In this document: one piece after another, positions 27,316-38,835 of the stretch | Layout of the letters: the number at the start of each line of letters is the position of its first letter | Position numbering within the stretch: the first letter of the stretch is position 1 | Origin: an uncultured Candidatus Kuenenia sp. | Lineage (GTDB): Bacteria > Planctomycetota > Planctomycetia > Pirellulales > UBA1268 | DNA: 64,000 nucleotides | NCBI GenBank assembly: GCA_964545915.1 | Contig: CAZJHQ010000013.1 | Coordinates: 1,572-65,571 of the forward strand | Direction: 5' to 3' | Translations under genes and position numbers: made by a program | The notes under the pieces: generated by a model | What the model was told of the DNA's origin: nothing | The model's input: only the letters and a program-made list of their open reading frames with translations | The model's database searches: none

Positions 27316-28326
27316 ATGGGCGGCATTGCAACGACTTCCCTGGACTCGGCGGCCAGGCCGGGGCGGCTTTTGGACCGGATTCGGCACGCGGCACGGTTGC
27401 GGCATTTGGCGACCAGCACCGAGAAGGCCTACGTGCACTGGGCGAAGCGGTTCGTGCTTTTTCACGGCCGCAGGCATCCGCAGGACATGGCTGAACCAGA
27501 GGTCAACGCCTTCCTGACACACCTGGCCGTCCACGAGCACGTCGCGGCTTCGACGCAGAACCAGGCCTTGGCGGCATTGCTTTTCCTGTACGCGAAAGTT
27601 CTCGGCCGGCCTCTGGAGCGCATGGAAGGCATCGTCCGTGCAAAACGGCCCAAGCGGCTGCCGGCCGTCCTCACGCCAGACGAGGTGCGTCGTGTTCTGG
27701 AATGCATGACCGGGGAGCACTGGCTGGTGGCCATGCTGCTGTACGGCGCCGGGCTGCGGCTCCTTGAGGCCCTACGATTGCGGGTCAAGGACATCGACAT
27801 GACGCACAACGTCCTCACGATCCGGGAGGCCAAAGGCAACAAGGACCGGGTCACCGTGCTTCCCTCCTGCCTGCGGGATCCGCTCGGCCGGCATCTCCAG
27901 CACCGTAGGCGGCAGCACGTGGCGGAGGTTGAAGCCGGTCGGGGCCGCGTGATGCTGCCCAAAGCCTTCGCGCGCAAGCATCCGAATGCCGAACTGGACT
28001 GGGCCTGGCAATGGGTGTTCACCGGCAAGAGTGACTTTCGTGACCGTGAAACGGGCCGCTTTTACCGCCATCACATCCACGAGACGGTGATTCAGCGGGC
28101 GGTTCGCGAGGCAGTGATCCGCGCGGGAGTCGAGCGGCGGGCGACCTGCCATACGCTGCGACACTCGTTCGCGACCCATCTCCTCCAGGATGGGGCCGAC
28201 ATCCGCACGGTGCAGGATCTCCTGGGCCACAACGACGTGAAGACGACGATGATCTACACGCACGTGCTCAACCGCGGAGGCGTGTCTGTTCGCAGCCCGG
28301 CGGACCGATTGGGGCTGGGGCAATGA
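27316..28326 (+). CDS. intI: Integron integrase
   Basis: [36 protein letters not shown] and [12 protein letters not shown], plus the IntI-specific insert [32 protein letters not shown]. Confidence 0.95.
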
Positions 28327-28559
28327 CAGCCGCCACTGCGGCTCGGGGGGCCGAGGCGTCGAGGGTGGCGTTTCGCACCGCCGTCAGCGGTGGTTGTGGC
28401 CCCCATCCGCAGCAACTCGCGCACCTGGCTTTTGCCCAGCCTGCCAAGGGTGATTATCCAGCGGATAAAACGCGTAATGCGGCAACGCGCTGCTTGGCTT
28501 TGCGTCGCAAGTCCTGCCGCGGCAAGATGATAGTTGCGGCACGAAGAAGTGGCCGCCGA

Positions 28560-28613
28560 GCGTTATCCAGCGGCAACCGAGTTTATACGGAACCGTAGAA
28601 TTACAAGTTAGGC
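28560..28613 (+). other. Putative attI site
   Basis: GTTAGGC (28607-28613) lies just before the first cassette ORF and is complementary to that cassette's R'' GCCTAAC. Nearby are the palindrome TACGGAACCGTA and the direct repeat TTATCCAGCGG. Confidence 0.7.
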
Positions 28614-28616
28614 GTC

Positions 28617-28910
28617 ATGAGCACTCCTGCCATTGAGATTCGTCCGTGGAGAGAGTGCCCGTTCACACGCGGCAGGCAGTATCGCGTCCGCCAGAGCTTC
28701 GCCGCATTGCGTGACTCCTTCACCGCCGGTGACATTCTCACCTTCGATTCCGACGCCTGGTCTCGATACGATGGCATTACTGGTTATTTTTTCCGACAAC
28801 CGTGCCGAGAGCGGCTGCGTGTGTGGGACATTGATGACGATGCAGACATCCAGATATGGAGAGAGCTTTTTGAGGAGCTGTCAGACACATTCACCCACAA
28901 CAACGCCTAA
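28617..28910 (+). CDS. Gene cassette 1: hypothetical protein (97 aa)
   Basis: The ORF fills the space between GTTAGGC and GCCTAAC; its stop lies inside the R'' box. Confidence 0.8.
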   Translation: MSTPAIEIRPWRECPFTRGRQYRVRQSFAALRDSFTAGDILTFDSDAWSRYDGITGYFFRQPCRERLRVWDIDDDADIQIWRELFEELSDTFTHNNA

Positions 28911-29245
28911 CCTTCTAAGGATTTGAGTTCGCGAAGCCGAACCTCAAATCCTCTGTTCAAGAAGCCCGGTGCCCCTGCGAGTGAGCCGCAGCGCTAGGGT
29001 AACGGTGGGCAGCGGAGCTGCCGCTAGAGTGTCACGGAGAGCGTGACGGCCGCCCGCTGGTGCTGATCGGCCTTGGCGACTGGGCTTTGAAGCCGTGCAG
29101 CGGGCTGACGGAGTGGTGTTGTGTGCGCGTCGCCGCGCACCGGCAGCGTTGAAAACCATGATGAGCGCGTACCGCGTCCGAGTCGCGACGAGCGCGATGA
29201 AAGACGGGAACGGTGATGACGGCGTGGCGCACTGGTGGCATCCGG

Positions 29246-30349
29246 TCAGCTCGTGTCGTGGATGGCAGAGGCGCGTTTGGGGAAGATGGCGACGACCCGC
29301 AGTTGTCCGCCGCACTCGCAGCAGCGTCGCGCCGGGAGGACGGGGGTGTCGGCAGCGGTCGTGGCGAGCAGCAGGAACTGTTCGCCGTTATTGAGCGTGA
29401 CGAGCCAGCGGACGGCTTCGATCGATATGGGGGCGTGTGCTCCCAGGAACCCGTAGTGCCGCACCTTCTGAAAGCCGCTTGGCAATACATGCTGAAGGAA
29501 GCGGCGGATGAACTCCATGGCATGGAGGGTCATCCTCCGCCAGCGGTTGGATCCGCTCCTGCGGTAGTAGAACGTGACCGTGTGGTCGTCGCAGGCGACG
29601 ATGCGGTGATCGCTGATGCCGACGCGGAACACGTAGGTCGCCAGATACTTCAGCGACATGCGGCCGTCGCCGACGGCTTTTGAGTGGACGACCCAGGCCC
29701 GTTTCCAGGCGGCCGGATCGACTTGCTCGAGCAGACCCGCCTTGCGGAGTTCCTCGCGGAACTTGGCCCGAAACAGGATCGACAACGCCTTGACCGGCAG
29801 GAAGAACGCCGGTCCGGAAGCGATCCAGGAGTTGCCATCAGCGGCGACGGCTCCGCCGGGCACGACGTAGTGGACGTGAGGGTGGTAGCCGAGGGTGCGA
29901 TCCCAGGTGTGGAGCACGCCGAAGAAGCCGGGCTGAGCGTCGCCGAGGAATCGCTTGTCGGCGGCGAGGGCCTGGATGGCCTTGCTCGACGCGTGGAAGA
30001 GAGCGGCGTAGACGGCGCGAGGGTTGCCCCGCGCCAGGCACCTCAGCTCGGAGGGCAGCGTGAACGTGAGCAGAAAATACGGGCAGGGCAGCAGGCGCGA
30101 AGTCTGTTTCTCGAGCCAGGCCCTGGTCTTCTCCTGCTGGCATGTCGGACAGTGCCGGTTGCCGCAGGATCGTCCCATGACATGGCTGCCGCCGCAGGTG
30201 GTGCAGGCGTACTGCACCTTCCCCAGCGCTCCGGTCCGGCAGGCACGGATGGCGCCGAGCACCTGGCGATGCAGGGGCGGCATCCGCGTGCCGAACCGGT
30301 CGAGATACTCCCCGCCATGCCGCCGCAGCACCTCGGCGACGGTCGGCAT
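29246..30349 (-). CDS. IS91-family Y2/HUH transposase with Zn-binding N-terminus
   Basis: CTTCG..SCGNRHCPTC, HTW..YHPHVH (HUH), YLATY (Y2) and FLQHVLP.GFQKVRHYG. Confidence 0.92.
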   Translation of the reverse strand: MPTVAEVLRRHGGEYLDRFGTRMPPLHRQVLGAIRACRTGALGKVQYACTTCGGSHVMGRSCGNRHCPTCQQEKTRAWLEKQTSRLLPCPYFLLTFTLPSELRCLARGNPRAVYAALFHASSKAIQALAADKRFLGDAQPGFFGVLHTWDRTLGYHPHVHYVVPGGAVAADGNSWIASGPAFFLPVKALSILFRAKFREELRKAGLLEQVDPAAWKRAWVVHSKAVGDGRMSLKYLATYVFRVGISDHRIVACDDHTVTFYYRRSGSNRWRRMTLHAMEFIRRFLQHVLPSGFQKVRHYGFLGAHAPISIEAVRWLVTLNNGEQFLLLATTAADTPVLPARRCCECGGQLRVVAIFPKRASAIHDTS

Positions 30350-30356
30350 GGCGCTA

Positions 30357-37605: not shown

Positions 37606-37622
37606 GAAATAAGTGACGCGTT

Positions 37623-38096
37623 ATGAGTGCGATTTACGTCGAAACCTCGATTGTCGGCTACCTGACCGCGCGCTCGGCGTCGGACGTGGTTTTCCAAGCT
37701 CGCCAAGAGTTGACGCGTCGTTGGTGGAAGCAGCGGCGCGAGGGGTTTGACCTCTACATCAGCCAACTGGTGCTCGATGAGGCTGGGGCGGGCGATCCCA
37801 CTGCAGCAGCCGACCGTCTTCGCCTGCTGGACGGCTTGCCGCTTCTTGGCGAATCGGCGGAAGCTGACCGTCTTGCCGACCTACTCATCGCCCGCCATCT
37901 GCTGCCCGCAAAAGCAGCCGCAGATGCACAACACGTCGCCCTGGCTGCCACGGCTGGCGTAGACTACTTGCTGACGTGGAACTGCAAGCACATCGCAAAT
38001 GCGGATTTGCTGCCAGCCCTGTACGAGACACTCAGGGCCGAGGGCTTTTCGCCGCCGCTGATCGTCACGCCTGAGGAGTTTTCCGATGCTGGTTGA
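37623..38096 (+). CDS. Gene cassette 4: VapC/PIN toxin
   Basis: IYVETSIVGYL, LDEA, DAQHVALA and LLTWNCKHIAN. Confidence 0.85.
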   Translation: MSAIYVETSIVGYLTARSASDVVFQARQELTRRWWKQRREGFDLYISQLVLDEAGAGDPTAAADRLRLLDGLPLLGESAEADRLADLLIARHLLPAKAAADAQHVALAATAGVDYLLTWNCKHIANADLLPALYETLRAEGFSPPLIVTPEEFSDAG

Positions 38097-38295
38097 ATCG
38101 CTCTACGCAGATCCCGTGGTGGCGGAAATTCACGAGGCGCGCCGACGCCTTCTGGAAGCCAGCGGCGGCGACGTCGCTGAGTTTCGGCGGCGTCTGCGTG
38201 AGAGGCAAAAAGCCTCCGGCAGAAAGATCGTGTCGGGGCCGGTGAAAAAGCACACGGAACCACGCGATGCAATGGACTCGCGGGCATCGTCTTGA
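38086..38295 (+). CDS. Gene cassette 4: probable antitoxin (downstream of the toxin)
   Basis: 69 aa, DPVVAEIHEARRRL motif, overlaps the toxin stop and runs into attC4. Confidence 0.65.
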   Translation: MLVESLYADPVVAEIHEARRRLLEASGGDVAEFRRRLRERQKASGRKIVSGPVKKHTEPRDAMDSRASS

Positions 38296-38343
38296 TTGAC
38301 GACTAGCTTCATGGCCGCGAGCCATTGATCTTTGCCGTTCGGC
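38254..38343 (+). other. attC4 (intact, uninterrupted, 90 bp)
   Basis: ACGGAAC-cacgc-GAT[G]CAATGG[A]CTCGCGG...CCGCGAGCCATTGATC..GTTCGGC. Its R'' is complementary to the upstream GTTCCGT. Confidence 0.9.
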
Positions 38344-38368
38344 AACTCAGAGAGAGGAGACGTAACGA

Positions 38369-38773
38369 ATGAACCCGACTGTGGAGCAGAGAATCACTGC
38401 GCTTGAGGCAGCAAACCGCCGCTATCGCATCGCTCTTAGCTCGGTGGCCCTTGTTAGCGTGTGCATGTGTGCCATGGCCGCCAAGGCACCACTGGCTGAA
38501 CTGTTGGAATCCAAACAAATCAAGACCGAAAAGTTGACGATCGCAGGGCCTGGCGGGGAGACCTATGCAGAGTTCGGCATCGTGGAGAAGGAACTTGCCT
38601 TGGTCGTCTATGATTCCGACACAAAGCCTCGGTTGGTCCTGGGAGCAGACCCTAGTCCCCGCATGGGAGAGATCGGTCTGAAGATACTCGACTCTGATGG
38701 CAAGGAGGTCTTCTTCAGCGGTCAACGCATCGACGGGCGCTGCGAAATAAGTGGCGTGCCTCCTGCGGAATAG
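38369..38773 (+). CDS. Gene cassette 5: hypothetical membrane-anchored protein (134 aa)
   Basis: GAGGAG SD, an N-terminal coiled coil, one TM segment and a beta-rich tail. R''-like GTCGAAC at 38828-38834. Confidence 0.75.
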   Translation: MNPTVEQRITALEAANRRYRIALSSVALVSVCMCAMAAKAPLAELLESKQIKTEKLTIAGPGGETYAEFGIVEKELALVVYDSDTKPRLVLGADPSPRMGEIGLKILDSDGKEVFFSGQRIDGRCEISGVPPAE

Positions 38774-38835
38774 CGACGGATCGAGGGACTCCGATAGCGT
38801 TCTCTATCACTCGTGCGTGCAAATACAGTCGAACA

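Follow-up and report, generated by a model that had tools for sequence, protein, structure and literature searches.

On which side of its integrase gene does an integron carry its cassettes, and what becomes of the cassettes' recombination sites once other mobile elements reach them? Both questions arise in a 64,000-nt stretch of contig CAZJHQ010000013.1 from an uncultured Candidatus Kuenenia sp. (the window), where an intI gene near 27 kb is followed by a cassette array. The locus is very probably an integron of the 'inverted integrase' type, sedentary in the chromosome of a freshwater planctomycete, with an array invaded by elements that home to attC sites. The original prediction had placed intI upstream of, and on the same strand as, attI and five plus-strand cassettes; this arrangement was recovered, with the boxes exactly as it had listed them. 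It had omitted the mobile elements that split four of the five attCs.

Layout of the integron

The integrase gene is full length and its catalytic motifs are intact. Its product matches the whole TIGR02249 'integron integrase' profile (1-315/315) at 450 bits (cutoff 265). The alignment of this product with VchIntIA (PDB 2A3V; E=1.4e-84) is full-length and takes in the IntI-specific insert, to which the segment ending in RHHIHE aligns. The nearest integrase relatives are found in metagenome-assembled genomes (MAGs) of Planctomycetota, at 93% and 88% identity. The open reading frame (ORF), which ends at 28326, had been given on the plus strand with a start at 27316. The strand stood, and the start may be at 27277 rather than 27316, because 13 additional residues are matched in the related loci L001 and L002.

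The spacer that follows intI contains a conserved attI. In an alignment of nine loci from the intI 3' end onward, two GTTATCCAGCGG-like motifs, the block TTATACGGAACCGTAGAATTACAA and a core GTT are kept; in the window, two TTATCCAGCGG motifs are located at 28454-28464 and 28563-28573. Conservation ends exactly at the core GTT, and a different first cassette follows in every locus, which is the signature of a cassette-exchange site. This result supports the earlier placement of the attI core GTTAGGC in the spacer, at 28607-28613, with the crossover placed between G28607 and T28608. A conserved TAGAAT (28597-28602), which matches five of the six bases of a -10 hexamer, lies 5 nt before the crossover and could be part of an IntI-binding box or a promoter.

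The R' and R'' boxes form a closed chain of pairs. The attI core pairs with GCCTAAC (28905-28911), GTTCGCT (31472-31478) with AGCGAAC (32269-32275), GTTCGCA (34835-34841) with TGCGAAC (35951-35957), GTTCCGT (37599-37605) with ACGGAAC (38254-38260) and, with one mismatch, GTTCGGC (38337-38343) with GTCGAAC (38828-38834). With the AAC/GTT anchors fixed, simple arithmetic on the four perfect 4-nt complements and the single-mismatch one gives a chance of about 1e-11 for this pairing. Four of the five attCs are split directly after R'' by mobile elements, and the site at 38254-38343 is the sole intact attC in the window. Taking out the inserted elements restores attCs of 88-90 nt, like the intact sites.

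Four window sites (three after the insertions were taken out) and six sites from relatives were aligned (n=10). Their RNAalifold consensus is a stem closed by AAC/GTT with 20 pairs, 14 of which show compensatory changes. Single-base bulges occur only on the 5' (R''-L'') arm of the plus strand, at positions 16 and 23. From the aligned sites we built a covariance model, which was run on the 64-kb window and on 80 related loci. In the window, it finds the four complete sites at 80-98 bits and scores at most 14 bits anywhere else; all four matches are on the plus strand and downstream of intI. The best site scores 97.6 bits on the plus strand compared with 11.4 on the reverse strand. The 'inverted integrase' layout that had been claimed, with intI on the attC top strand and upstream, is thus recovered. 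An attI or array upstream of intI had been named as the contrary case; no attC-like site was found there, where the best covariance-model score is below 10 bits.

Because R'/R'' pairing is symmetric under reverse complement, the boxes alone cannot give the polarity of the array, which is read from the strand that encodes the cassette ORFs, the bulge-bearing arm, the strand-specific model scores and the position of attI. The arm that bears the extrahelical bases selects the strand, and the identity of the first base matters little (Bouvier 2009; PMC2727003). By this rule, bulges on the 5' arm of the plus strand make the plus strand the top strand. In every site the first extrahelical base (position 16, e.g. 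38269) is a top-strand G, corresponding to a bottom-strand C, and it lies on the canonical arm.

The layout was then surveyed by applying the covariance model to the 80 loci, which encode IntI relatives. In 27 of them, the attC matches are on the plus strand downstream of intI; these co-oriented loci belong mostly to Planctomycetota, together with Acidobacteriota, Chloroflexota, Gemmatimonadota, Latescibacterota and one delta-proteobacterial MAG. Seven loci, six proteobacterial and one from KSB1, have the matches on the minus strand upstream of intI, as in the classical divergent layout. The model finds the upstream minus-strand arrays in these seven loci, which indicates that the method separates both layouts. 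In a rough neighbour-joining tree, the window IntI groups within a planctomycete clade whose members are all co-oriented. The divergent loci fall in two places: the six from Proteobacteria cluster apart as a single clade, and the KSB1 locus is nested among co-oriented ones. This tree agrees with the paraphyly of the inverted-integrase group reported by Cury 2016 (PMC4889954). Co-orientation is the rule around the window IntI. The earlier statement that it is a minority layout holds for Proteobacteria-rich databases and fails around the present IntI (27 co-oriented loci versus 7 divergent). The co-oriented layout itself is already known, documented by Boucher 2007 (as cited in PMC3575428), and the locus adds a planctomycete example.

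Elements inserted at the attC sites

Two of the split attCs contain copies of an element that we call X (copies A and B, Table 1), which together form an exact 2488-bp duplication (28909-31396 = 32273-34760). The copies are 100% identical, suggesting a recent invasion. The X transposase contains Y2_Tnp and Zn_Tnp_IS91 domains with HPHVH and YLATY motifs (HUH/Y2). The linked Xer-like recombinase shares 31% identity with IntI and lacks the IntI insert, including the segment that ends in RHHIHE. Both copies are placed directly after the AAC of R'' (after GCCTAAC and after AGCGAAC) and are antisense to the cassettes. On its coding strand, X starts with 5'-GTTCAAGTAAGCC and ends with a 10-bp hairpin plus six nucleotides, which are followed by GTTA or GTTC. 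In the IS91 pattern, a terIS begins with GTTC, a palindromic oriIS abuts a GTTC-type target, and the target is not duplicated (PMC13181058). The ends of X fit this pattern: they are unlike each other (oriIS palindrome, terIS 5'-GTTC), and there is no target duplication.

Metagenome contigs of the locus end at the repeat borders, and the depth of X is about twice that of its flanks (Logan contigs, four metagenomes), which together indicate that the duplication is real. One Logan contig covers 31367-32302, from an X end through cassette 2 to an X end. Neither an X circle junction nor an empty X site was found among the Logan contigs of four metagenome DNA runs, Logan being a resource that drops rare forms. 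Contigs of the metagenome runs X9, X10 and X30 join 31395 to 37523, that is, the X ter end to the cassette 3 attC; this joint is either a further X insertion or a deletion variant of the array in the population. The joined ends of X are predicted to fold like an attC, at -21.7 kcal/mol compared with -19.7 and -21.0 for attC bottom strands; in the resulting hairpin, an asymmetric internal loop separates a 12-bp stem that contains AAC/GTT from a 10-bp stem.

When metagenome contigs were scanned with the X transposase, at least 548 relatives were returned, and 80 of them were fetched. Of the fetched loci, 75 extend far enough upstream of tnpA for a further gene, and in 74 of these the recombinase gene lies about 11 nt before tnpA; the termini of the X family are kept over 46-96% transposase identity. 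Of 40 oriIS ends, 38 adjoin a top-strand AAC (GTT when read on the coding strand), mostly in RYYYAAC-like heptamers. The covariance model gave 45 attC matches in these loci; every one runs antisense to tnpA, and in 16 the match stops precisely at terIS. The strict fold pattern was observed in 12 of 43 ter flanks compared with 10 of 600 control sites. An energy-only test of the flanks for attC-likeness gave no discrimination, with the lowest-energy choice favouring long GC-rich controls; it was superseded by the fold-pattern test and the covariance model.

In another planctomycete array (L002), GGCTAAC is followed by a near-identical X. A relative with 52-56% identity comes after GGCTAAC in a delta-proteobacterial array, where the remaining attC lies beyond its other end. 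Among cultured bacteria, X relatives are antisense in a Salinivibrio cassette array, and one occupies the aadA1 attC of a class 1 integron carried by an Escherichia coli IncC plasmid. Removing 2336 bp from this plasmid restores the aadA1-qacEdelta1 junction, which matches the single-piece sequence of other plasmids at 320 of 320 bases. The E. coli element was therefore inserted precisely between the R'' GTCTAAC and AATTC, with no duplication. A megablast search with this relative against plasmids returned only one full copy, and the element is thus rare in that collection. Locus L084 contains a close relative without the recombinase gene (3268-4001; 88% transposase identity), with an attC about 650 nt upstream of the 5'-truncated tnpA.

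No description of an attC-targeting IS91 group was found in the searchable literature; the nearest mention is in a Shewanella survey, which places ISShvi3 'adjacent to an attC site' in an integron. X may represent an undescribed, multi-phylum IS91-family group with a linked Xer-like recombinase that homes to the place directly 5' of the R'' GTT on the attC bottom strand, antisense to the cassettes, a proposal that we put forward tentatively, with doubt slightly outweighing belief. In the bottom-strand attC, about 5 nt of spacer separate a stem from GTT; in the X oriIS, 5-7 nt separate a stem from the target GTT. The X transposase might therefore recognise the folded attC because its stem, spacer and GTT imitate those of the element's oriIS. 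Alternatively, given the attC-like fold of the joined X ends, a single-strand circle produced by the transposase might be pasted into an attC, cassette-like, by the linked recombinase.

The attC of cassette 3 is split by an element of the IS1111/IS110 family of insertion sequences (IS). Its transposase contains the DEDD_Tnp_IS110 domain (PF01548) and a partial Transposase_20 domain. Subterminal inverted repeats of 8 bp are located at 35964-35971 (ATGGCCTC) and near 37506-37513 (GAGGCCAT), and a non-coding part of about 600 nt lies downstream of tnp. At the junctions, TGCGAAC is followed by (C)TCTCTATGG and GTCGAAC by (A)TCTCTATGG, and tnp, on the minus strand, runs antisense to the cassettes. 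None of the listed minus-strand ORFs in 35940-37520 encodes the absent C-terminal part of the transposase. The element is defective and its interior is a mosaic, and metagenome contigs break at 36283, 36374 and 36584. A sequence beginning TTCTGTAAATCACCGGTAGGGGCC (36584-36640), where the transposase gene breaks off, recurs in L009 (5679-5750), just after intI, and in L011 (13994-14064), just after an attC R'; in both loci it forms a hairpin with a 14-bp stem that shows compensatory changes between them.

The original prediction ended the array at 38834, but it extends to about 39590 through an IS remnant, a solo hairpin and half an attC. The remnant, from a second IS1111-like copy, is composed of two segments (38830-39150 = 35953-36273 at 99.7%; 39146-39429 = 36563-36846 at 96.8%). 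The attC in the debris beyond it lacks its 3' half and gives a partial, weak model match at 39558-39594. The solo X hairpin, which has no X body, ends in GTTCAAC compared with GTTCAAG in X, and resembles a solo hairpin that stands in tandem before a full X relative in L091 (reverse strand, 15-123). A nicotinamidase (PncA)-like gene lacks its 3' third and is cut precisely where the array debris begins. This suggests that the distal end of the array was lost through a deletion or rearrangement that also truncated this host gene. A group IIC-attC intron was considered for the inserted blocks and rejected, because an Rfam scan of 26500-40600 for group II introns or other known RNAs (E up to 1) returned only a tRNA and no group II ribozyme motif.

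Competing readings, expression and gene content

The locus is best explained as an integron in which IntI would fold the hairpin of the bottom (minus) attC strand and recombine it with attI, or with another attC, between the G and the TT of the core, so that new cassettes would enter next to attI. This proposal draws on the anatomy of the locus and on homology to IntI1 and VchIntIA. Its parts are intI, attI about 280 bp downstream and at least five promoterless plus-strand cassettes, all ending in attCs of about 89 nt. The platform appears intact, but the array is heavily invaded by elements that appear to home to the attC 5' end in antisense: two X copies, one defective IS1111-like element and one remnant. 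The attI-proximal cassettes may be transcribed by read-through from the intI promoter or from a promoter in the intI 3' end or the spacer, since the strand shared by intI and the cassettes places them within reach of read-through.

Evidence on expression comes from Logan contigs of RNA runs, which are low in coverage, strandless and mostly derived from related intI genes. Three 151-nt contigs, each with 0-2 mismatches, cover 28205-28355, 28286-28436 and 28412-28562; the intI stop codon (28326) lies within the first two, and the third carries the tiling to 28562. One weak terminator-like site, no more than expected by chance, was found in 26900-29000. Read-through from intI into the cassettes is plausible, if weakly supported. 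The 2.5 kb of antisense X genes after cassette 1 would obstruct transcripts bound for cassettes 2-5.

Several observations weigh against this explanation. A sigma-70-like promoter is absent from the scan of 26900-29000, a scan that does not cover planctomycete promoters. The RNA contigs are short and strandless, and they could stem from DNA carry-over. The first extrahelical base of the attCs is C on the bottom strand compared with G in classical attCs. The interruption of four of the five attCs and the degraded array end indicate that the integron could be in decay. A stronger form of the last point is that the locus is the fossil of an integron of the same layout, no longer functional and eroded by insertion sequences and deletions; the truncated IS1111-like transposase and the half attC that terminates the array against the truncated pncA-like gene are in line with this. 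We regard it as unlikely. The integrase gene and attI show no such erosion, the first being complete with its catalytic motifs and the second conserved, and the identity of the X copies points to a recent event. The terminal CTTGAAC of X replaces R'' and leaves complete attC-like sites of 88-98 bits: the remainders of the cassette 1 and cassette 2 attCs, each joined to the X terminus, are matched at 31390-31478 (97.6 bits) and 34754-34841 (88.7 bits). The cassette 3 attC is matched at 37517-37605 (79.8 bits). Metagenome contigs also show these attCs joined to other cassettes.

The remaining alternatives concern how the parts are assigned. If the attCs were in the opposite polarity, with their bottom strand on the plus strand, the cluster would stand beside an integrase that does not serve it. 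The symmetry of box pairing would allow this, and the first bulged base on the plus strand is G, as on a classical bottom strand. It is nevertheless scarcely credible: bulges on the plus-strand 5' arm are top-strand geometry, a bottom strand having them on its 3' arm; every cassette ORF runs on the plus strand from R' to R''; the conserved attI abuts intI and relatives diverge from its GTT; and the 27 co-oriented loci are arranged alike. It could also be argued that the X units are large ordinary cassettes in the order cassette 1, X, cassette 2, X, cassette 3, with the short hairpin as the attC of cassettes 1 and 2 and the long attC as that of X. GTTCAAG at 28955-28961 exactly complements CTTGAAC at 31390-31396, closing the box chain, and the hairpin with its flanks resembles a 57-nt mini-attC. 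However, the 100% identity spans only the hairpin to CTTGAAC, and the long attC parts beyond are about 78% alike; the hairpin follows unrelated cassettes in the window and in L002, L081, L082 and L084; and the unit encodes an IS91 transposase and has IS91-type ends. The empty site in E. coli, moreover, proves a precise 2336-bp insertion within a known attC. On the borders of the identity block and this empty site we rejected X as an ordinary cassette, a reading that is very improbable.

The cassette ORFs (Table 1) are all on the plus strand, start 4-26 nt past R' and end at or just before R''. Most have no family, the exceptions being the SseB-like and DinB_2 proteins. Cassette 4 recurs whole, from R' to R', at 86-94% identity and at other ranks in the planctomycete-type arrays L058, L029, L025 and L006; the other cassettes were not found elsewhere in the loci compared. 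The recurrence of cassette 4 points to independent cassette mobility, as judged by sequence identity. Its overlapping ORF pair, without a family match, resembles a toxin-antitoxin pair in size and organisation.

Table 1. Coordinates of the integron, its inserted elements and adjoining genes in the window.
Feature	Position	Strand	Details
intI, integron integrase, 349 aa	27277-28326	+	TIGR02249 450 bits; alternative start 27316
intI-attI spacer and attI	28327-28613	+	alignment with 8 relatives
Cassette 1	28608-31472	+	ORF 28617-28910, 97 aa, no family
Cassette 1 attC, split	R'' GCCTAAC 28905-28911; remainder 31397-31478, R' GTTCGCT	+	restored 89 nt
Element X copy A, 2485 bp	28912-31396	-	oriIS hairpin end 28912-28961; terIS end 31384-31396
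X copy A tnpA, IS91-family	29246-30349	-	NF033538 369 bits (cutoff 125)
X copy A Xer-like tyrosine recombinase	30357-31322	-	7 nt upstream of tnpA
Cassette 2	31473-34835	+	SseB-like ORF 31486-32253; SseB and SseB_C domains
Cassette 2 attC, split	R'' AGCGAAC 32269-32275; remainder 34761-34841, R' GTTCGCA	+	restored 88 nt
Element X copy B	32276-34760	-	100% identical to copy A
Cassette 3	34836-37599	+	ORFs 34858-35286 (142 aa, no family), 35294-35932 (DinB_2)
Cassette 3 attC, split	R'' TGCGAAC 35951-35957; remainder 37524-37605, R' GTTCCGT	+	
IS1111/IS110-family element, ~1566 bp	35958-37523 (boundaries +/-1 nt)	-	splits cassette 3 attC
DEDD transposase ORF, truncated at 295 aa	36559-37446	-	NF033542 150 bits, profile 1-259/343
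Cassette 4	37600-38337	+	ORFs 37623-38096 (157 aa), 38086-38295 (69 aa); attC 38254-38343, 80.4 bits
Cassette 5	38338-38834	+	ORF 38369-38773 (134 aa); R'' GTCGAAC 38828-38834; rest of attC lost
Remnant of second IS1111-like copy: right end and transposase fragment	38835-39429	-	splits cassette 5 attC
Array debris: solo X oriIS hairpin (39489-39545), then attC 5' arm	39489-39590	+	93% identity to X end
Nicotinamidase (PncA)-like fragment	39493-40236	-	NF008623 E=1.8e-15, profile 79-153/213
tRNA-His (GTG)	40321-40395	-	ARAGORN; Rfam 68.6 bits; first intact host gene past array

The GC content of the window is about 69-70% and drops to 58-66% in the array, between 27 and 40.3 kb. DNA of the locus was found word for word in many freshwater metagenome runs. 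Both flanks contain genes of chromosomal type, with a phosphate porin, a pyrroloquinoline quinone (PQQ) propeller protein and a PNPOx-like protein upstream and tRNA-His, dtd and an anti-sigma factor downstream. A weak PIN-domain ORF (26542-27144, minus strand; E ~0.02-0.05) is divergent from intI. Similarity to the nearest relatives, L001 and L002, begins merely about 127 bp upstream of intI, suggesting that the integron platform resides in differing neighbourhoods among closely related genomes. A genomic island at tRNA-His was considered and rejected, the 3' end of the tRNA having no direct repeat on the intI side.

Known systems and significance

Like the inverted-integrase integrons of Treponema denticola and others, the window integron is chromosomal, has intI upstream of and on the same strand as attI and the array, and carries cassettes mostly without known function. 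It differs from them in its Planctomycetota host, its homogeneous attCs of about 89 nt, the bottom-strand C as first extrahelical base and the heavy invasion of its array by attC-homing elements. With the class 1 and Vibrio integrons (IntI1, VchIntIA) it shares the IntI fold and insert, the G/TT crossover logic and an attC architecture of R box, unpaired spacer, L box and bulges on the R''-L'' arm. Class 1 and Vibrio integrons have a divergent intI, with the cassette promoter Pc inside or beside intI on the other strand; neither is possible in the window.

The inserted elements also have known counterparts. The IS1111-like copy resembles the IS1111-attC group (ISPa21, ISPst6 and ISKpn4), which was reportedly treated by Tetu and Holmes in 2008 and by Post and Hall in 2009. 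As likened by described features, it shares with this group the DEDD transposase, the subterminal repeats and the non-coding part 3' of tnp (PMC11187229), as well as antisense insertion near the attC 5' end (PMC3001079); unlike the group, the window copy is a defective element whose transposase is truncated and whose interior is mosaic. Both IS1111-attC elements and group IIC-attC introns insert near the attC 5' end, antisense to the cassettes (PMC3001079). X resembles the introns in its bottom-strand insertion at this place and orientation, whereas the introns are retroelements with a ribozyme, and no group II RNA motif is present in the window region. With IS91, IS801 and IS1294 (PMC13181058), X shares the HUH/Y2 transposase, the unlike ends, the absence of target duplication and an oriIS that abuts GTTN. 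Compared with this family, X carries in addition the Xer-like recombinase gene, about 11 nt upstream of tnpA (74/75 loci), and sits at the GTT of the attC R'' rather than at any GTTC, and its joined ends would fold like an attC.

The locus is a well-resolved planctomycete co-oriented integron with a defined attI, homogeneous attCs and within-clade cassette exchange, and it is useful for tuning integron finders. It also raises the question of how cassettes are expressed where Pc cannot sit antisense inside intI. The attC-homing IS91/Xer elements are the part of the locus worth following, being less ordinary than the layout. Elements of the X type reach clinical class 1 integrons, with one in the attC of aadA1 on an IncC plasmid; there, such an insertion separates a resistance gene from its recombination site and lays 2.3-2.5 kb of antisense DNA in the path of transcription from Pc. 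If the proposal for the X group is true, this group would be a third class of attC-specific parasites after the IS1111-attC elements and the group IIC-attC introns, and three unrelated chemistries (DEDD, retrohoming and HUH) would converge on a few nucleotides of the folded attC.

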